IMG/VR virus record: IMGVR_UViG_2778261162_000009
Direction: 5' to 3' (one strand)
Length of the DNA stretch: 24,974 nt
Source of the DNA: a virus
Taxonomy: Duplodnaviria > Heunggongvirae > Uroviricota > Caudoviricetes
Position numbers and translations under genes: made by a program. A model generated the notes under the pieces. The model was not told the origin of the DNA. It searched no databases and saw nothing but the letters and a program-made list of their open reading frames with translations. Numbering within the stretch: the stretch's first letter is position 1; every line of letters starts with the position of its first letter. Below, in pieces: positions 1-12,768 of this stretch.

Positions 1-1002
1 TTACCCTCTATTGTCAAAAGGGTTCAATTCAACAGCAGCCTCTAAATGACCTGGAGCAAAATGCGCATAACGCATAGTCATTTTTATATCGCTATGCCCC
101 AGTATTTTTTGCAACACAAGAATATTTCCGCCCCGCATCATAAAATGACTGGCAAACGTGTGACGTAGCACATGAGTTAATTGCCCATCAGGAAGCTCGA
201 TCTTCGCTCTCTTAATTGCAGCGTCAAAAGCCTCATAACATGGTGAAAATAGCGCTCCTCGTTTTTTAGGAAGCATAGCCTGCAATTGAGGTGAAATCGG
301 TACAGTGCGGTTCTTCTTTCCTTTAGTTTTAACAAATGTGATTCGACCGGGCAGTACTTGAGATTGCTTTAATCCTTCTGCTTCACTCCACCGAGCACCC
401 GTCGCAAGCCCAATACGGACAACAACCCCCAAATCTTTATTCCGTGACTCATCACACGCAATCAGAAGGCGCTCAATCTCATCTACATACAGAAACGCCA
501 GTTCCTTTTCTTCCTCACGAAACTTGCGAATACCAGTCAGGGGGTTTTCACCAGACCACTCCCCAAGGCGCTTCAGTTCGGCAAAAACAGCATGTAGATA
601 TGACTGCTCGCGATTAACGGTTGCTTCACTAAGTTTTTTCTTCCCCTTGGGATTCCATTCTCCTGATAGCCTTCTTTCCCGATAAGTAGCAAACATATTT
701 TTGTCAAACTGAGAAGCAAATGGATCTCCCAGCCTGGAACAAATCGCCTCAAGTTTGACTTTGCGCTCTGCACCAGAGGACAAGGTTTTACCGTACATCT
801 CAAACCAACGAGCAATCAACTCAGAAAGACGAGGACCAGAACCATCTTGAAACTCGTCTCCAACTCTACTATTCATTAAACGGCGCTCATAAGAGAGCGC
901 CTCACTTTTTGTCGCAAACTGTTTACGAATGCGTTTTCCCGATACCCCGTAGGGATAACATTCGCAAAGCCATTTACCTGATGGAATCTTACGAACCGAC
1001 AT
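1..1002 (-). CDS. int: Tyrosine-recombinase integrase (P2 Int family), 333 aa; stop codon sits at the window edge
   Basis: ORF translation has integrase-like C-terminal catalytic region (…HVLRHTFASHF…MRYAHF…); position next to the repressor as in P2/186 prophages. Confidence 0.88.
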   Translation of the reverse strand: MSVRKIPSGKWLCECYPYGVSGKRIRKQFATKSEALSYERRLMNSRVGDEFQDGSGPRLSELIARWFEMYGKTLSSGAERKVKLEAICSRLGDPFASQFDKNMFATYRERRLSGEWNPKGKKKLSEATVNREQSYLHAVFAELKRLGEWSGENPLTGIRKFREEEKELAFLYVDEIERLLIACDESRNKDLGVVVRIGLATGARWSEAEGLKQSQVLPGRITFVKTKGKKNRTVPISPQLQAMLPKKRGALFSPCYEAFDAAIKRAKIELPDGQLTHVLRHTFASHFMMRGGNILVLQKILGHSDIKMTMRYAHFAPGHLEAAVELNPFDNRG

Positions 1003-5903: not shown

Positions 5904-6293
5904 ATGATTGACGCTCATGACTTCACAAGATGGGTGCGCACACAGGACACCCGTCTGGCTCCCGTTCTTCAGGGATTATTTGATCTCTACATCCGTGGCC
6001 GTGACAACAGAGCACGCACCACAAAACCAGAGAATGCAGACACCCTTTATTTCACAGTAGACGACTGCTACCGCGTGGACTTCACACCACACGGGCTGGC
6101 GTTGCACTGCCTGACACCACACGGAGGATCACTGCTAGCGTATTACGACTCCCCGGCCTCCGTATTTGCGGCAATGCTGGCGCATTGCACTGCTGGCGGG
6201 TGTGCCTCGCTGAGTGAATACACCGCTGAATTTAACCGCCTTTCTGCCCTCTTCTCGCAGGAGTGGCAGCGCGTGACGGGATACCAGCCATGA
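5904..6293 (+). CDS. Hypothetical early protein, 129 aa
   Basis: ORF immediately upstream of and overlapping gene A start. Confidence 0.5.
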   Translation: MIDAHDFTRWVRTQDTRLAPVLQGLFDLYIRGRDNRARTTKPENADTLYFTVDDCYRVDFTPHGLALHCLTPHGGSLLAYYDSPASVFAAMLAHCTAGGCASLSEYTAEFNRLSALFSQEWQRVTGYQP

Positions 6294-9130
6294 GTGAGTT
6301 TGCATGGAGCTGGAATGAACCACGGCCAGCCATTGATCCGGCCAGATTTACGGAGCACAGGCAGGAAACTGAAACCGACCTGCAACGCGCCATCCGTTAC
6401 TACCTTGAGGCAGACAAAAAGGCTCTGGAAGAACAGGAAGCGAAGGAGGAAGCCTTTTTCGCACAATCCACCGTGGGTAAAAAACTCATGGCATCCCTTG
6501 AGGAAGCCGGACAGCGTGAAAAGCTGGCACAAAGCATCATCAGCAATCGTCAGGCAACAGAACAAGACCCGGTGGCCCGTGCTTTTGCCACACTGAAGGT
6601 GCTTCCCGTTTATCTGCGTGAACCTCTGAGCCACCACCTCTCTTTCCTGCGCAAAAAACAGGAAGCCGATCGCCAGAAAGGCAAAAAGAGCTGGCAGGCT
6701 GAACGCTACGCGCGCGGAACCCTGCGCAAAATATTCGAACGTCTGGACCGCACCGATCACCGCTGGCTGACACCGGGTTATCGCTCCCTTGCCGGACGCG
6801 AACGCCTGGACGATTTGCTTTACCTGCCGCAGCTCAACAAACACCAGATACAGACGCTGGCCACCATGACGGCGGCGATGTTCAGCAGCACCTTCGAAAA
6901 ACTCTGCGATGGCTTTGGCGCGACTGATGGCGAACTGACCATGGATGTAACGCTGAAGGCGTATCAGATGCTGGCCCGCATGGCGTTACACCTGCACGCC
7001 ATGCCTCCACATTATGACGCACTGACAACAGACAAAGACCGGAGGAACGAACCGGACACGGAGCTGCTGCCGGGCGCAATCCTTCGCCTGACCTGTGCGG
7101 AATGGTGGAAACGCAAACTGTGGCTGTTACGTTGCGAGTGGAGAGAAGAACAACTCCGCGCCGCCTGTCTGGTTTCCAGAAAAACATCACCCTATCTGAG
7201 CCAGGACGCGTTAAGCGAGTTTCGCGCACAGCGCGAGAAAACACGCGATTTCCTGAAAAGTTTCATGCTGGAAAATGAAGACGGGTTCACGATTGATCTC
7301 GAGACGGTGTATTACGCGGGAGTAAGTAACCCGGTTCACCGTAAGGCAGAAATGATGGCCACCATGAAGGGACTGGAACTTCTGGCCGAAGCCCGTGGCG
7401 ACAGAGCGGTGTTTCTGACTGTCACCTGCCCGTCAAAATACCACGCAACAACGGAGAACGGTCATCCGAACCCCAAATGGAACGGGGCCACCATGCGCGA
7501 CTCCAGCGATTACCTGGTTAACACGTTTTTTGCGGCGGTCCGCAAAAAACTGAACCGCGACGGTCTGCGCTGGTATGGCATCCGCACGGTGGAGCCTCAC
7601 CATGACGGCACTGTGCACTGGCACATGATGGTCTTTGCACATCCGGACGAGATTGAAACCATCGTGTCCCACGTCTGCGATATTGCCATTCAGGAAGACC
7701 GCCACGAGCTGGGCGATGACATAACTCCGCGTTTTAAGGCGGAGTACGTAGACGGCTCAAAAGGCACACCAACCAGCTACATCGCCACCTACATCGGAAA
7801 GAACCTGGACAGCCGCGCCGTGGATGGCATCGACCCGAAAACGGGCAAGCCACGCGTTGACCACGAAACCGGAAAATCAATGGCCGAGAGCGTGGAACGC
7901 GCCATCGGCTGGGCGCGCCTTCACCGGGTCCGCCAGTTCCAGTTCTTTGGTATCCCCTCCCGTCAGGTGTGGCGTGAACTGCGTCGCCTTGCCAGCCAGA
8001 TGGCACGCAACCCGGAAGGCCCGCAACGGCTGAAGGATGACGCAATGGACGCGGTACTCGCTGCCGCTGATGCCGGATGTTTTGCCACCTACATTGAGAA
8101 ACAGGGTGGCGTACTTGTTCCACGCAAGGACTACCTGATTCGCACCGCCTACGACCTCGCAGATGAGCTGAACGATTACGGCGAACAGAGCGTACAGATT
8201 TACGGGATCTGGTCACCACTCATCGGGGAGTCTTCCCGTGTGTGCACACATCCGGATAACTGGAAGCTGGTAAGACGTAAACCGGAAGCGGAAGACAGCG
8301 CCCGCGAAAATGGTTTTGACCTTCAGGGCGGCCCTGCCGCCCCTTGGACTCGTGGCAATAACTGTCCCCGTGTACAGGAAACGGACAACAACGGGACAGA
8401 ACAGCCGGAAGAACGGCCAGCACCGTGGCCGCAGCTTCCTGACGGCGTTGATGTGGATGAATGGATGCGCTCACTGAAACGGCACGAACGCCGGGCGCTG
8501 ATGCGTTCGCTTCGTGACAAACAGGCAAAAAACAGCAGTGATGAAATGCAGAGCTGGACACAGAGCCGCAAACAGCAGCGGCCTTTGCCTGATAACTACG
8601 AATTACTCGCTAAAGAATGGCGGGAATCTGCCGAATCTCTCGGCCTGCATATCGGTGAACAGCAGATGCAGCACCTGTTACGGGGCGGCAGCCTGTACGT
8701 TGACGGCAGCATCATTGCACCGCAGGGATTTGAAATTGTACGCAAACCGGATACCCGCCCGGACAGCCGAATCACGCAGCTCTGGCAGCGCCTGAGCCGT
8801 AATCACGGCGTAAGCAGCACAGAGATCCGCCATAACCCGGTCGCCAGCTATCTGGAACAACTGGGGGCATCAGACCCCGAAGCCGCCGCACGTCTGGCAT
8901 CCACACTTCAGCAGGACCAGAACACCATGAAAACCCCCGTTACCGTGCTTTCTGACATGCTGCGCGCCATCCGTGACGCAGAGCACGCACAGAGAATCAG
9001 TGAAACCACTGAACGCGCCCACCGCAAAGCAGACCTGCTGCGGGGTAGCCTGACCAGTGGAAACAAAAAACAGACAGAAACGGGACTCACAAATCCCGTA
9101 AATGAGCAAAAAACGCGCCGCGATATATGA
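6290..9130 (+). CDS. A: Replication initiation protein, P2 gpA-like rolling-circle endonuclease, about 946 aa
   Basis: Motif VEPHHDGTVHWHMMVF (HxH metal-binding motif of gpA family) and YIATYIGKN (catalytic Tyr region); start ATG 6290 overlaps upstream stop. Confidence 0.88.
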   Translation: MSEFAWSWNEPRPAIDPARFTEHRQETETDLQRAIRYYLEADKKALEEQEAKEEAFFAQSTVGKKLMASLEEAGQREKLAQSIISNRQATEQDPVARAFATLKVLPVYLREPLSHHLSFLRKKQEADRQKGKKSWQAERYARGTLRKIFERLDRTDHRWLTPGYRSLAGRERLDDLLYLPQLNKHQIQTLATMTAAMFSSTFEKLCDGFGATDGELTMDVTLKAYQMLARMALHLHAMPPHYDALTTDKDRRNEPDTELLPGAILRLTCAEWWKRKLWLLRCEWREEQLRAACLVSRKTSPYLSQDALSEFRAQREKTRDFLKSFMLENEDGFTIDLETVYYAGVSNPVHRKAEMMATMKGLELLAEARGDRAVFLTVTCPSKYHATTENGHPNPKWNGATMRDSSDYLVNTFFAAVRKKLNRDGLRWYGIRTVEPHHDGTVHWHMMVFAHPDEIETIVSHVCDIAIQEDRHELGDDITPRFKAEYVDGSKGTPTSYIATYIGKNLDSRAVDGIDPKTGKPRVDHETGKSMAESVERAIGWARLHRVRQFQFFGIPSRQVWRELRRLASQMARNPEGPQRLKDDAMDAVLAAADAGCFATYIEKQGGVLVPRKDYLIRTAYDLADELNDYGEQSVQIYGIWSPLIGESSRVCTHPDNWKLVRRKPEAEDSARENGFDLQGGPAAPWTRGNNCPRVQETDNNGTEQPEERPAPWPQLPDGVDVDEWMRSLKRHERRALMRSLRDKQAKNSSDEMQSWTQSRKQQRPLPDNYELLAKEWRESAESLGLHIGEQQMQHLLRGGSLYVDGSIIAPQGFEIVRKPDTRPDSRITQLWQRLSRNHGVSSTEIRHNPVASYLEQLGASDPEAAARLASTLQQDQNTMKTPVTVLSDMLRAIRDAEHAQRISETTERAHRKADLLRGSLTSGNKKQTETGLTNPVNEQKTRRDI

Positions 9131-9206: not shown

Positions 9207-10166
9207 ATGAAAATTTGTATCGACGACGGCTCCACCAACATCAAGCTGGCATGGACTGAGAACGGCAAACGCCGCAACGCCATCAGCCCGAACAGCTTCA
9301 AGTCGGAATGGTCTGCGCCGTTCGGTGGCACGCAGCCCGCGAACTACATGCTTGATGGCGTGCGCTATGGCTTTGATCCGGTCAGCGATCGCTTTGTCCA
9401 GACGACCGACACGCAATACCAGTACAGCGATGTGAATGTCATTGCCATTCATCACGCGCTGGTCAAATCAGGCATCACGCCACAGGAGGTGGATGTGGTT
9501 GTCACCCTGCCACTGAGCGAGTATTTCGACACAAACGCACAGCCGGACATGGCCAACATCAGCCGCAAAAAAGCGAACGTTATGCGCCCGGTGGAGTACC
9601 AGAACGGCGAAGCATTCACTATCCGTAACGTACGGGTTATGCCTGAATCCATTCCGGCTGGCTTTAAGGCACTGGCTGACATGAGTCCGTTTGAATCCCT
9701 GCTGATTGTGGATTTGGGCGGAACCACGCTGGATGTGGCAAAGGTTCAGGGGCAACTGGCAGGTATTAGCCAGGTGTTTTGCGATCCACACGTAGGCGTT
9801 TCTCTGATGGCCGATGCCGTACTGTCGGTGATGGCCACTAACGGTATGCGTACCAGTCACCACATCGCCAATACCATTATCGAACATCGCCATGATGAAG
9901 CCTGGCTGCGCCAGCACATCCACAATGACGCGCATTACGCCAGCCTGATGGCGGTTATTCGTGAAAAGGAAGAAACACTGAAACAACGCGTGATCCGCGC
10001 GCTGGCGGTTTTTTCGGGTTACGGGCGGGTGATGGTTGTCGGTGGCGGGGCGGAGATTGTGGCACCCGCTATCCGCGAAGCCTGCGGAGTTAATGCGACT
10101 TTCATCGCGGACGGGGTGCCACAGTTTGCTCTGGTTAATGGGCTGTACGCAATGGACAAGGAGTAA
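9207..10166 (+). CDS. parM: ParM/StbA-like actin-type ATPase, 319 aa
   Basis: Strong resemblance to plasmid R1 ParM from memory: MKICIDDGSTNIKLAW, SPNSF, YSDVNV…HHAL, VMPESIPAG, DLGGTTLD, VGGGAE, LVNG. Confidence 0.85.
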   Translation: MKICIDDGSTNIKLAWTENGKRRNAISPNSFKSEWSAPFGGTQPANYMLDGVRYGFDPVSDRFVQTTDTQYQYSDVNVIAIHHALVKSGITPQEVDVVVTLPLSEYFDTNAQPDMANISRKKANVMRPVEYQNGEAFTIRNVRVMPESIPAGFKALADMSPFESLLIVDLGGTTLDVAKVQGQLAGISQVFCDPHVGVSLMADAVLSVMATNGMRTSHHIANTIIEHRHDEAWLRQHIHNDAHYASLMAVIREKEETLKQRVIRALAVFSGYGRVMVVGGGAEIVAPAIREACGVNATFIADGVPQFALVNGLYAMDKE

Positions 10167-10170
10167 ACCA

Positions 10171-10485
10171 ATGACGACACCAACCAGACGGATAAGTTTC
10201 TATCTGAAGCCAGCTGCAGTCAAGAGTGAACGGGAAGCGTGTAATTATCTCGACAGCCTGCCAGCCTCCGAACGCAGCCGCGCGCAACGCGCGGCATTTC
10301 TGGCTGGACTGGCACTCATTAAAAACGATCCTGCCTTTGCTTACTGGCTGGCTGAATGGTCAGAGGGGGAAAATATGCCTGCCAACAATCACATATGGGG
10401 CTGGCATAACAGCGAGCCTGCTGGTTGCAAAAATCAGAATATAAGTCAAATAAAAAAGAATATTCAGGAATTTTTTCCTGAATGA
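10171..10485 (+). CDS. parR: ParR/StbB-like partition adaptor, about 104 aa
   Basis: RRISFYLKP…LDSLPASERSRAQRAAFLAGLAL matches ParR N-terminal RHH region; AGGAG SD; directly downstream of parM. Confidence 0.65.
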   Translation: MTTPTRRISFYLKPAAVKSEREACNYLDSLPASERSRAQRAAFLAGLALIKNDPAFAYWLAEWSEGENMPANNHIWGWHNSEPAGCKNQNISQIKKNIQEFFPE

Positions 10486-10490
10486 TCACA

Positions 10491-10516
10491 AAAAGCATGG
10501 CTTTCGCCATGCTTTT
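10491..10516. terminator. Bidirectional intrinsic terminator (AAAAGCATGGC-tttc-GCCATGCTTTT)
   Basis: Perfect hairpin flanked by A-run and T-run. Confidence 0.6.
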
Positions 10517-10528
10517 AAATATCAAATA

Positions 10529-10678
10529 TCAGCTTCGCACTAGAAACGCCCAAGCTTTCCAGCCATACTCATGAGCATCCAGCTTTCGACCAGAATCACC
10601 ACGAACCTTACGGTATCGGCAAAACTGCCAACGAAATCCTTTCGGAGCCGGTTTTTTTACAATTGATTTCAAAGCCAT
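10529..10678 (-). CDS. Unannotated small ORF, 49 aa, basic (MALKSIVKKPAPKGFRWQFCRYRKVRGDSGRKLDAHEYGWKAWAFLVRS)
   Basis: Consensus SD AAGGAGGTGA upstream; lies between two terminators; below ORF-track cutoff. Confidence 0.3.
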   Translation of the reverse strand: MALKSIVKKPAPKGFRWQFCRYRKVRGDSGRKLDAHEYGWKAWAFLVRS

Positions 10679-10807
10679 CCATAATCACCTCCTTACTGAG
10701 AATGATTTTTACCTTGATTATCTGCCTGGATTGACTAGAATCACAGTTGTACATGCAAAACATCAAGGTGATGATATTTCTCAGACTATCATTTCTTTGT
10801 GTTGAAA

Positions 10808-10837
10808 AGCCCCTGACGGTTGGCCCCGTCAGGGGCT
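10808..10837. terminator. Intrinsic terminator after the antitoxin gene (AGCCCCTGACGG…CCGTCAGGGGCT)
   Basis: 12-bp perfect stem; U-rich tract follows on minus strand. Confidence 0.6.
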
Positions 10838-10843
10838 TAATAT

Positions 10844-11161
10844 TTATGCAACCTGACAGGAATGTTCTGCCGTCGCAGTAACAACCCCACCGGAATACCC
10901 AAACTTAAAATCCCACCCCAGGATGTTTAGCATGATAAACAGTCGATCAATGGTATGATTATCTAACTTACCATTAATGATTTCGCTTACTCTTGGTTGG
11001 GTAGTTTCCAGCAATTCAGCAGCTTCTCGCTGGGTAAGACCGCGCTCCTGAATCATTTTTCGGATAATAACCATTAATTGGGCCCGGATGTGTTTATCAC
11101 TAGCTTCATTTACAGAGCTACTTGATGACGCATAAGGGTTTTTGACTACGACGAATTCCAT
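10844..11161 (-). CDS. HigA-like XRE-HTH antitoxin, 105 aa
   Basis: HTH pattern GLTQREAAELLETTQPRVSEIINGKL; downstream of Gp49-family toxin gene. Confidence 0.7.
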   Translation of the reverse strand: MEFVVVKNPYASSSSSVNEASDKHIRAQLMVIIRKMIQERGLTQREAAELLETTQPRVSEIINGKLDNHTIDRLFIMLNILGWDFKFGYSGGVVTATAEHSCQVA

Positions 11162-11231
11162 AACTCTCCAGCCTTAATCAGCGATGTTGCTGACATTGAT
11201 TATGTTATATCAGATTTGAGATACCTGCAAG

Positions 11232-11633
11232 CTATCTTAAGCCATTTTTACGACGATACTCCACTAATTGTTTGTATCTTGCGGCAGCTGTCTCATATTC
11301 TTTTTTTGACACACCATTTGTCTTTTTCTTAAATGTATGAAGTATGTAAACAGACTCCGCAAATTTCGCAACGTAAATCATACGATAAGAATCACTACTC
11401 TTGATGGTTAATTGCATTGCGTAGCGACCAATCGTTTCCCGCATTGATTTTTTTTGAGCAGGTGGAACCCCCAAGGCATCATCACCATCCACTGGAAAAT
11501 CGAAACTGTCGAAAGAATGAGGACAATCGCTCTGCAGTGCAACAAGCTCAAAATTTATCCTTTCTCGAACAGCTTCAGGATAACTATCAATTTGTTTCTG
11601 AATTTTATCATTCCAATATGTGATGTCTTTCAC
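11232..11633 (-). CDS. HigB/RelE-superfamily toxin of the Gp49-like family, 133 aa
   Basis: C-terminal signature RMIYVAKFAESVYILHTFKKKTNGVSKKEYETAAARYKQL; GTG start with GAGAGG SD; toxin-first order typical of HigBA. Confidence 0.65.
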   Translation of the reverse strand: MKDITYWNDKIQKQIDSYPEAVRERINFELVALQSDCPHSFDSFDFPVDGDDALGVPPAQKKSMRETIGRYAMQLTIKSSDSYRMIYVAKFAESVYILHTFKKKTNGVSKKEYETAAARYKQLVEYRRKNGLR

Positions 11634-12243
11634 TCAGAACCTCTCACCAACGTAACCGAACGAAATTATACAAAGATCTTTTTTCGCTTAAATACATCCA
11701 CTGAACGTTGATTTTAATGCAAGATTGTGCACAAATTTGCACAATTTTTTTGAACGACTTTTTGCCCTTCCGGCCCGCGTGGCGGCTGGATCCGCCAAGG
11801 ATCCGTGCGTGCACAAAAAAACGCGTTTTTTCTGCGCGCAGGTGACGGGGGAACAGCCCGCGTTTCAGGGGGTAAATAGCATCCCCTGAACGATGTCGCA
11901 GCGACACGACAGAATGGCTGTATTTCTCACGCTGAGCGTGAAAAAGACGTGAGGGTTTTTGATTTGATGGGGTGGCAGATAAGGCCGTCAAAATCGCACT
12001 GAGGCGGCGAGAACATGCAGTCAGCGCGATGGGATTGCGTAAGAGCCTGACCGTCGATGATGGCAATAAGCTGGAAGGCGTCGTGAAATTATCTGATTGA
12101 TACAGGAGCTGGAGAGTCGGGGCATAAATTTTTTATGCCCCGGCGAAGCAGCAGACAAGCGAAGCGCGTCAGTGATACGGCACCTTGCCGACCATACTTC
12201 ATAAGTGCAAAATACGAGCAAAGAAATCAATGGAGGCTGTCTT

Positions 12244-12768
12244 ATGGTCATTAATTACAAGCAGTTAAGAGAAAAACGGGAGCAGGTAAAGGAGAGCTTT
12301 CGCCGCAATGAAGATCTGACCCCGCTTGTACGCCTTGCCCAGGGCATTGTTGATGCTTATGAAATCTCGCTGGAGCTGCCATCACAGACCTGGACAGATA
12401 GCGATGGTAATCGCCAGCATTACGTTTCATGCGGACTGGAAGCAGCCGAAGGATTTCGCAGAATGCCTTTATCCCAGATCCCTGCCGCTACCCCCAAAGC
12501 ACGGGGCAGCAATGATGAGCGAAAACTGACTTTTAGTATTGAAACGGTGGTTGACGACACACCTGGCGAAGTCGCGTTCGTGCACACTCCTGTTTCGATC
12601 GCAATGTATAACGATGAAATACAGGTTCGCGTTAATAATAATATCGTGCCACTTAAAGAAGGTAATTCACCCTACACCACCGTTTGTGAAGCCATTCAAT
12701 ATTACGTTCTCTCTGAAATTGATAATCTCAAGCCTGACGGCACCCAGAAAATGGTTCAACTCTGGTAA
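12244..12768 (+). CDS. Orphan hypothetical protein, 174 aa (cargo gene between cos region and portal gene)
   Basis: ATG 12244 with GGAGG 7 nt upstream; convergent with Q; no recognisable domain. Confidence 0.6.
   Translation: MVINYKQLREKREQVKESFRRNEDLTPLVRLAQGIVDAYEISLELPSQTWTDSDGNRQHYVSCGLEAAEGFRRMPLSQIPAATPKARGSNDERKLTFSIETVVDDTPGEVAFVHTPVSIAMYNDEIQVRVNNNIVPLKEGNSPYTTVCEAIQYYVLSEIDNLKPDGTQKMVQLW

Follow-up and report, generated by a model that had tools for sequence, protein, structure and literature searches.

A rare Tad-Ata-type (Gp49/HTH_37) toxin-antitoxin pair with an acidic toxin loop and separated genes, carried as cargo at the gpA-gpQ hotspot of a P88-like prophage

Toxins of the Gp49 family are ribosome-dependent mRNases whose genes precede those of their antitoxins (PMC11980606, PMC2701414). 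The family includes Tad-Ata (COG4679/DUF891 with COG5606), described from Paracoccus plasmid pAMI2, phage N15 (gp49) and SXT, in which the toxin is predicted to be a RelE-like mRNase (PMC2701414), the plasmid-borne HigBA2 of A. baumannii, a plasmid-stabilising module in which the Gp49 toxin precedes an autorepressing helix-turn-helix (HTH) antitoxin (PMC5906591), and the Gp49/HTH_37 pairs that ride as passengers on Tn3-family transposons (PMC7157771); a prophage HigB-type system is also known to defend against lambda (bioRxiv 10.1101/2024.02.24.581848). Here we analyse a toxin-antitoxin pair at positions 10844-11633 of the IMG/VR record IMGVR_UViG_2778261162_000009, a stretch of 24,974 nt (hereafter the window) that corresponds to a P88-like (Xuanwuvirus, P2-like) prophage. 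The pair is a real, rare and atypical member of this well-known toxin-antitoxin family, and it is exchangeable cargo at the gpA-gpQ hotspot of its prophage. It shares with Tad-Ata both Pfam families, the toxin-first order and residence on plasmids and phages, and belongs to a clade that departs from canonical Gp49 pairs in four linked respects: an acidic loop in the toxin, replaced residues in the catalytic pocket, uncoupled genes, and a downstream unit, named here S49 after its 49-amino-acid product, that usually follows the pair.

The toxin gene (11232-11633, minus strand, GTG start) encodes a 133-amino-acid protein of the Gp49/Tad family that scores 50 bits with PF05973 (gathering score 23.9; E=3.2e-13; aligned over residues 58-121 only). 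The same domain is present in all 21 close toxin homologues, and the predicted structure is a RelE-type fold, a beta-sheet flanked by helices, with the long C-terminal helix of Gp49-like proteins. The antitoxin gene (10844-11161, minus strand, ATG start) encodes a 105-amino-acid HTH_37 (COG5606/Ata-type) protein, matching PF13744 with 67.7 bits against a gathering score of 27 (E=7.7e-19) and having 2a6c as its closest solved sequence (E=2.8e-11). It is the better conserved partner, with, for example, 90% identity where the toxin shows 73%. A preliminary description of this DNA, based on the sequence alone, had recognized a Gp49-family RelE-like toxin followed by an XRE-HTH antitoxin and had proposed a profile search as a check; the scores above the Pfam gathering thresholds bear out both assignments, and the toxin-first order is seen here and in every homologous locus examined. 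The HigB/HigA label that it applied agrees with the Gp49 and XRE-type HTH families but fails in its strict sense, since the toxin matched neither of the HigB Pfam families searched (PF05015 HigB-like and PF09907 HigB) and the antitoxin falls below the cut-off of the NCBIfam HigA equivalog TIGR02607 (14.3 vs 47.7 bits). In RefSeq the two products already go by the names of type II toxin and HTH protein; judged by family matches, the pair is correctly labelled Tad-Ata (COG4679/COG5606 or Gp49/HTH_37).

The first departure from the family lies between helix alpha2 and the next strand of the toxin, where codons 35-58 (SDCPHSFDSFDFPVDGDDALGVPP; 11460-11531, minus strand) encode a clade-specific acidic loop. 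In a family alignment of 100 sequences, 30 insert-bearing and 70 canonical, the segment matching residues 35-58 comprises 5 amino acids in 55/70 canonical members, 15-38 in the 30 insert-bearing members and 24 in this copy. The acidic insertion that the preliminary description considered atypical of the family is hence real (24 vs 5 amino acids), but it marks a clade and is not peculiar to this copy. The loop opens with a conserved CPHSFDDFDF-like motif, which is followed by an acidic run of variable length, and in close homologues it contains 6-17 acidic and 0-3 basic residues. Residues 35-58 have no predicted secondary structure, with predicted local distance difference test (pLDDT) values below 50 at residues 40-53, and the loop is accordingly predicted to be disordered. 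The median net charge of the clade toxins is +0.7 with the loop and +8.8 for the core alone, compared with +7.7 in canonical members; the loop offsets most of the core's positive charge and probably moderates or gates toxin activity.

The catalytic pocket was mapped by aligning the canonical profile with HMMER to the structures of M. tuberculosis HigB1 (HigB-TAC, Rv1955; PDB 7awk/7nbu; PMC9098466), and residues were counted by column in the 100-sequence alignment. HigB1 residues K58, E66, R68, R77, F93, K95, Q98 and K99 correspond here to K62, Q74, T76, R84, F101, K103, N106 and G107, so that K62, R84, F101 and K103 are kept (HigB1 K58, R77, F93 and K95; PMC9098466). Within the insert clade, Q occupies position 74 in 29/30 sequences, T or S position 76 in 28/30 and G position 107 in 29/30, where the canonical columns hold E in 63/70, R in 58/70 and K in 36/70, respectively; the position of N106 is E in most of the clade. 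Two lysines, K78 and K102, are fixed across the clade, and the pocket may therefore be rebuilt, not lost.

Compared with Tad-Ata, then, this clade carries a loop of 15-38 amino acids, has Q-x-T/S in place of E-x-R and G in place of K in its pocket, and replaces the gene overlap with a spacer of 57-189 nt bearing a putative promoter and operator of its own. The toxin likewise differs from M. tuberculosis HigB1, with which it shares only 15% sequence identity, in the absence of equivalents of E66, R68, Q98 and K99 and in the extra acidic insertion. There is no SecB-like chaperone gene as in the toxin-antitoxin-chaperone systems, the third gene here encoding instead a 49-amino-acid basic protein without match in Pfam, NCBIfam or PADLOC. 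The S. pneumoniae HigBA system (PDB 6af3/6af4) has no loop and a canonical E66/R68/K92 pocket, and its sequence similarity to the toxin is confined to the C-terminal half.

The two genes are separated by a spacer of exactly 70 nt (11162-11231, minus strand), as the antitoxin frame has no start codon further upstream. The preliminary description had regarded this gap as unusual, and rightly so: among 57 canonical Gp49/HTH pairs, obtained from the Gp49 genes of a species-representative genome scan, the median spacing is -4 nt and only 1/57 reaches at least 50 nt. Spacers in the clade range from 57 to 189 nt, and the overlap or translational coupling typical of the family is not found here. Instead, the spacer contains a putative antitoxin promoter, P_A, with a -35 element TTGCAG (11225-11230, minus strand) and a -10 element TAACAT (11202-11207, minus strand) that conform to a conserved pattern, TTGnnn-17 nt-TAnnnT, invariant in 10 loci, in two of which the TTG falls inside or across the last codons of the toxin gene, including its stop. 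The 17 nt between the two elements are filled by an imperfect 18-bp palindrome, TATCTCAAATCTGATATA (11206-11223, minus strand), which overlaps the -10 element and constitutes the putative operator of the HTH antitoxin. Its pattern among loci is TATCTCAAAT(C/T)TGATATA, with a mean pairwise identity of 0.91 (9 loci), compared with 0.46 for the third codon positions in the neighbouring antitoxin gene; no other site in the window matches with 3 or fewer mismatches, 0 being expected by chance. A scan of viral contigs for the exact pattern returned mostly unrelated perfect AT-rich palindromes, and the pair only on contigs already known.

Between the P_A -10 element and the antitoxin ribosome-binding site (11164-11176, minus strand), the spacer can form a hairpin, GUCAGC/GCUGAU (11177-11194, minus strand). 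A stem-loop occurs at the equivalent place in 10/11 loci with varying stems (GUCAGCA/UGCUGAC, GUCAGUU/AACUGAC, GUCUG/CAGGC, CCGC/GCGG), a pattern indicating that the hairpin is conserved by structure rather than sequence; an Rfam search of the spacer gave no significant match. Taken as a whole, the spacer would combine a putative antitoxin-only promoter, a putative operator for the HTH protein and a putative hairpin at the 5' end of the resulting mRNA.

Upstream of the toxin gene we located a Shine-Dalgarno sequence, GAGAGG (11640-11645, minus strand), and the -10 element TATAAT (11665-11670, minus strand) of a putative toxin promoter, P_T. The toxin start is preceded, at a distance of about 33 nt, by a TGTATAAT-like -10 element, whatever the upstream context, in all loci except those of Photorhabdus (L005) and of the Rep_3 plasmid (L101). 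A classical operator at the operon promoter, which is where that of A. baumannii HigBA2 is situated (PMC5906591), was considered and dropped: in none of 11 loci did the region ahead of the toxin gene hold an operator or a half-site, and the only conserved palindrome is the one between the genes. Autoregulation, described for HigBA2, is putative here.

Two further features of this region vary among members. In the Rep_3 plasmid, the most divergent member, the spacer extends over 189 nt (L101, 3628-3816), and 3-4 direct repeats of about 20 nt (..ATTTATACAAAAAAC..) replace the palindrome, which suggests a different operator for the diverged antitoxin. In the phage lineage of the window, the toxin gene starts with GTG (11631-11633), as opposed to ATG in every homologue examined; together with the poor -35 region, this start codon suggests lower toxin expression in this lineage.

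The clade is sparsely represented in current sequence data. Only 22 toxin-related clusters were retrieved from a large protein database at E<=1e-3 (47-99% identity), with a matching set for the antitoxin, and when 1.84 billion representatives were searched exhaustively with a profile, 1612 family matches emerged, only 3 of them at E<=1e-30. Scanning species-representative genomes with the clade alignment revealed no close relative, the genes recovered being canonical Gp49 members at 28-54% identity, and the pair is present in 2/5426 complete E. coli genomes. Independent genomes and viral contigs contain intact copies of both open reading frames (ORFs) at 99-100% identity, and toxin and antitoxin homologues are always adjacent in the loci examined. 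The carriers comprise plasmids, with the pair beside repA of an IncFII replicon or beside parA of a Rep_3 replicon, lambdoid prophages, one with the pair in the nin-like region and another beside the integrase, three P2-like phages, among which the pair takes two orientations, Pantoea, where an AbiTii gene is nearby, and a Photorhabdus chromosome. The pair thus behaves like a mobile module. The Gp49/HTH_37 pairs of Tn3-family transposons resemble it in domain pair, gene order and passage on a mobile element (PMC7157771), but occupy another carrier and position, and neither an insertion nor a long spacer is reported for them.

Within the window, the pair and the S49 unit make up a cargo segment of 1.24 kb (10486-11726) that separates the ParR-like gene from the cos-proximal backbone. 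The surrounding backbone comprises the integrase (1-1002), the replication endonuclease gpA (6263-9130), a ParM/ParR-like pair (9207-10485) and, from 12783 onward on the minus strand, the portal and terminase genes. Other P88-like phages, which lack this cargo, lose similarity to the window near the end of the ParR-like gene (~10370-10485) and regain it at ~11727, and sister P88-like phages carry unrelated genes at this position. A search of phage DNA returned backbone matches only, and searching plasmid DNA with the cargo returned no matches. The gpA-gpQ, cos-proximal position is a documented hotspot of P2-like phages (PMC9122126, PMC13586616) that is rich in defence genes (PMC9122126), and the P2 cargo genes old and tin share this site, between the replication genes and the portal and known for anti-phage genes, but have no sequence relation to the pair. 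The pair was not found in the text-format supplementary files of PMC9122126, and a full-text search for its RefSeq accession returned nothing. These results agree with the placement of the pair in an accessory hotspot of AT-rich DNA by the preliminary description, G+C content being 0.39-0.44 over 10401-11600 and 0.53-0.58 on both flanks. Its statement that the pair lies on the strand opposite to the phage backbone applies to gpA, ParM and ParR, but not to the portal and terminase genes, which share the strand of the pair.

Directly 3' of the antitoxin stop lies a GC-rich hairpin of 13 bp (10807-10838), a putative bidirectional terminator of the antitoxin gene and of a candidate antisense RNA. 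The preliminary description had credited the pair with a terminator of its own; a hairpin is indeed present, but it tracks the adjacent conserved S49 unit and not the pair. Compensatory changes, a conserved GGCGCCAACC loop and a T-run on the antisense side are found in 8/8 loci, including loci without the toxin-antitoxin pair, and no such hairpin follows the antitoxin in a locus without S49, which is why we assign it to the S49 unit. S49 itself (10529-10678, minus strand; phrog_33859, E=5e-24) is a conserved basic protein of 49 amino acids with an isoelectric point of 10.8, its homologues forming five clusters; searches against Pfam, NCBIfam and PADLOC gave no match, and its AlphaFold2 model is poor (pLDDT 58). 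The S49 start lies 166-176 nt past the antitoxin stop in every locus carrying it. More broadly, a 49-amino-acid ORF starts 166-177 nt past the antitoxin stop in 10/12 distinct loci, the other two lacking any.

The S49 unit (10529-10806, minus strand, in the window) recurs in L006, L090, L099, L147-L154 and L157-L159, S49 being unannotated in several of these records, and it also follows pairs of HTH and ImmA/IrrE genes in Arsenophonus, in a lambdoid phage and in 13 E. coli genomes. It is a separate unit accompanying two kinds of XRE-type modules at prophage cargo positions, and on account of these additional contexts we rejected, as the main interpretation, a toxin-antitoxin system in which S49 is a required third member. 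Between the hairpin and S49, a structured leader (10679-10806, minus strand) spans about 110 nt with covariation: RNAalifold predicts 18 pairs, including a long-range stem, with compensatory changes at 11/18, and an Rfam search of the leader gave no significant match. On the plus strand, a candidate antisense promoter (-35 at 10714-10719, -10 at 10736-10741) follows the pattern TTGAnn-16..18-TAnnnT, which is kept in 8/8 loci and directed at the hairpin, suggesting that the strand opposite the S49 leader gives rise to a cis-antisense RNA, about 100 nt long (~10748-10846, plus strand), which would end at the bidirectional hairpin. No conserved sense promoter was found between the hairpin and S49, and the S49 mRNA therefore probably originates from the upstream pair.

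The layout of S49 and its candidate antisense RNA resembles that of a type I toxin-antitoxin locus. At three other loci, a Cys-rich ORF (CxxCGxxC...IFRYSICVNGVMR.AKKGKPFPIPVCSCS) lies 174-177 nt past the antitoxin stop (L003, 7002-7151; L091, 6961-7143; L095, ~6005-6154). It encodes 49 amino acids in L003 and L095, while in L091 the longest ORF has 60 and an internal ATG gives a 47-amino-acid form; the region upstream of it is also structured, and profile comparison of S49 with the Cys-rich ORF detected no homology.

We consider it most likely, with moderate confidence, that the pair is a working type II Tad-Ata (Gp49/HTH_37) addiction or abortive-infection module in which an autoregulated antitoxin, expressed in excess from its own promoter, restrains a ribosome-dependent mRNase toxin whose pocket has been rebuilt and whose loop masks charge. 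The data above show the family membership, the predicted fold, the order of the genes, the hotspot location and the conservation of the loop and of the spacer elements; from these we infer the two promoters, the binding of the operator, the toxicity, the cleavage of mRNA and the biological role. Transcription from the promoter with the perfect -10 element (11665-11670) would cover the toxin gene and continue across the 70-nt spacer to take in the antitoxin gene, and a second promoter within the spacer would produce an antitoxin-only mRNA starting at the stabilising 5' hairpin. An HTH_37 antitoxin dimer would bind the 18-bp palindrome between the -35 and -10 elements of the spacer promoter, and because it would thereby act on its own promoter, the antitoxin would set its own level and stay in excess over the toxin, an arrangement replacing the canonical translational coupling. 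The antitoxin would bind and neutralise the RelE-fold toxin, whose clade-specific acidic loop offsets most of the charge of the core and probably tempers or gates toxin activity. If antitoxin supply stopped, either through loss of the element or through shut-off of host transcription by an infecting phage, free toxin would enter the ribosomal A site and cleave mRNA as M. tuberculosis HigB1 does, and the resulting growth stop would stabilise the prophage or abort the infection. An abortive-infection role is only a possibility.

Several observations weigh against this interpretation. Four of the eight HigB1 pocket matches are replaced clade-wide (E66 by Q74, R68 by T76, Q98 by N106, or by E in most of the clade, and K99 by G107), and because half of the pocket is affected, toxicity is not to be assumed; R68A and K99A abolish the toxicity of HigB1, E66A weakens it, and the Gp49 paralogues HigB2 and HigB3 were non-toxic in the same study (PMC9098466). 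The P_A hexamers are weak, with 6-9 of 12 consensus matches per locus, and were not called by a consensus scan, so that the case for this promoter rests on conservation; P_T was not called either, its -35 being poor here, and a predicted internal antitoxin promoter of A. baumannii HigBA2 proved inactive (PMC5906591). The GTG start, the poor -35 and the loop of this copy, the shortest of the clade, could reflect weak expression or attenuation. In addition, the PADLOC-DB 2.0 models gave no convincing match, the toxin hitting NsnC (E=0.0026) and the antitoxin PDC-M64C (E=5e-5) weakly and partially.

Many of these observations feed the main rival explanation, according to which the toxin is attenuated or non-catalytic, a RelE-fold protein that no longer cleaves mRNA efficiently and may act as a ribosome binder or as the partner of an HTH repressor, the pair being a small regulatory or weakly addictive unit and not a killer. 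The near-fixation of Q74, T/S76 and G107 in place of E, R and K (HigB1 E66, R68 and K99; 28-29/30 insert-bearing sequences), the inactivating effect of the HigB1 substitutions, the non-toxic paralogues, an acidic loop cancelling the basic charge needed for contact with rRNA and mRNA, and the GTG start and weak -35 of this copy all speak for it. Yet R84, F101, K103 and K62 are kept and K78 and K102 are fixed, as in a pocket that may have been rebuilt, the pair is strictly conserved while hopping between plasmids and phages as addiction modules do, and a tightly conserved, apparently autoregulated antitoxin makes sense with a dangerous partner; we regard attenuation as unlikely, though worth keeping in view. 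More easily set aside is the idea that the pair is an inert passenger, a decaying remnant without current function in this prophage. Its rarity (2/5426 complete E. coli genomes), the GTG start and a loop shorter than any other in the clade would fit decay, but intact ORFs at 99-100% identity in independent genomes and viral contigs, together with the presence of all clade-conserved regulatory elements, make it very improbable.

A different rival concerns the extent of the system. Toxin, antitoxin and S49 unit might act together as a three-part cassette, S49 serving as a type I-style second effector or as a modulator expressed by read-through. The position of the 49-amino-acid ORF 166-177 nt past the antitoxin stop in 10/12 distinct loci, the lack of a conserved sense promoter between hairpin and S49, with its mRNA probably coming from the upstream pair, the covarying leader, and the conserved antisense promoter with its bidirectional terminator are consistent with such a cassette. 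Against it stand the S49 units that follow unrelated HTH and ImmA/IrrE pairs (Arsenophonus, a lambdoid phage, 13 E. coli genomes), the two pair-bearing loci without any such ORF and the three with the non-homologous Cys-rich ORF, and the strong hairpin between S49 and the antitoxin gene. The cassette is possible, but less likely than an attenuated toxin. More speculative, and in our estimate doubtful, is the proposal that the insert clade represents a functionally distinct Gp49 module, its disordered loop acting as an intramolecular nucleic-acid mimic that masks a rebuilt, lysine-based active site until displaced by a trigger; in a composite cassette with a type-I-like, antisense-controlled S49, this would make a two-layer abortive-infection or addiction device that travels among the hotspots of phages and plasmids.

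A toxin-antitoxin pair in a prophage hotspot is expected and, in this case, already annotated, so that its presence alone changes little. The architecture of the clade and the S49 unit are of somewhat more interest than the pair itself. The clade constitutes a natural experiment on how toxin-first modules keep the antitoxin in excess, an operator-controlled promoter apparently replacing coupling, on how much rebuilding a RelE-type active site can undergo in a module that remains mobile and conserved, and on the role of an acidic disordered loop on a ribosome-targeting toxin. Found beside two XRE-type modules in phages, the S49 unit may represent a new small element, toxin-like or regulatory, and S49 is unannotated in most records.

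The analysis also brought to light several features of the neighbouring prophage DNA. The ParM-like actin and the ParR/StbB-like protein (Plasmid_stab_B, E=9e-26) encoded at 9207-10485 are backbone genes of integrating P88-like phages, which retain these partition-type ParM/ParR genes of plasmid kind although they integrate. Between the cos-proximal region and the portal, a 187-amino-acid ORF (12205-12768, plus strand; phrog_5091, E=2e-67) is missing from an otherwise near-identical E. coli prophage in L001, which points to a second small variable spot. Finally, overlapping palindromes and repeats (TTGTGCACAA ATT TGCACAA) occur at 11718-11748, exactly where the cargo meets the conserved phage backbone.

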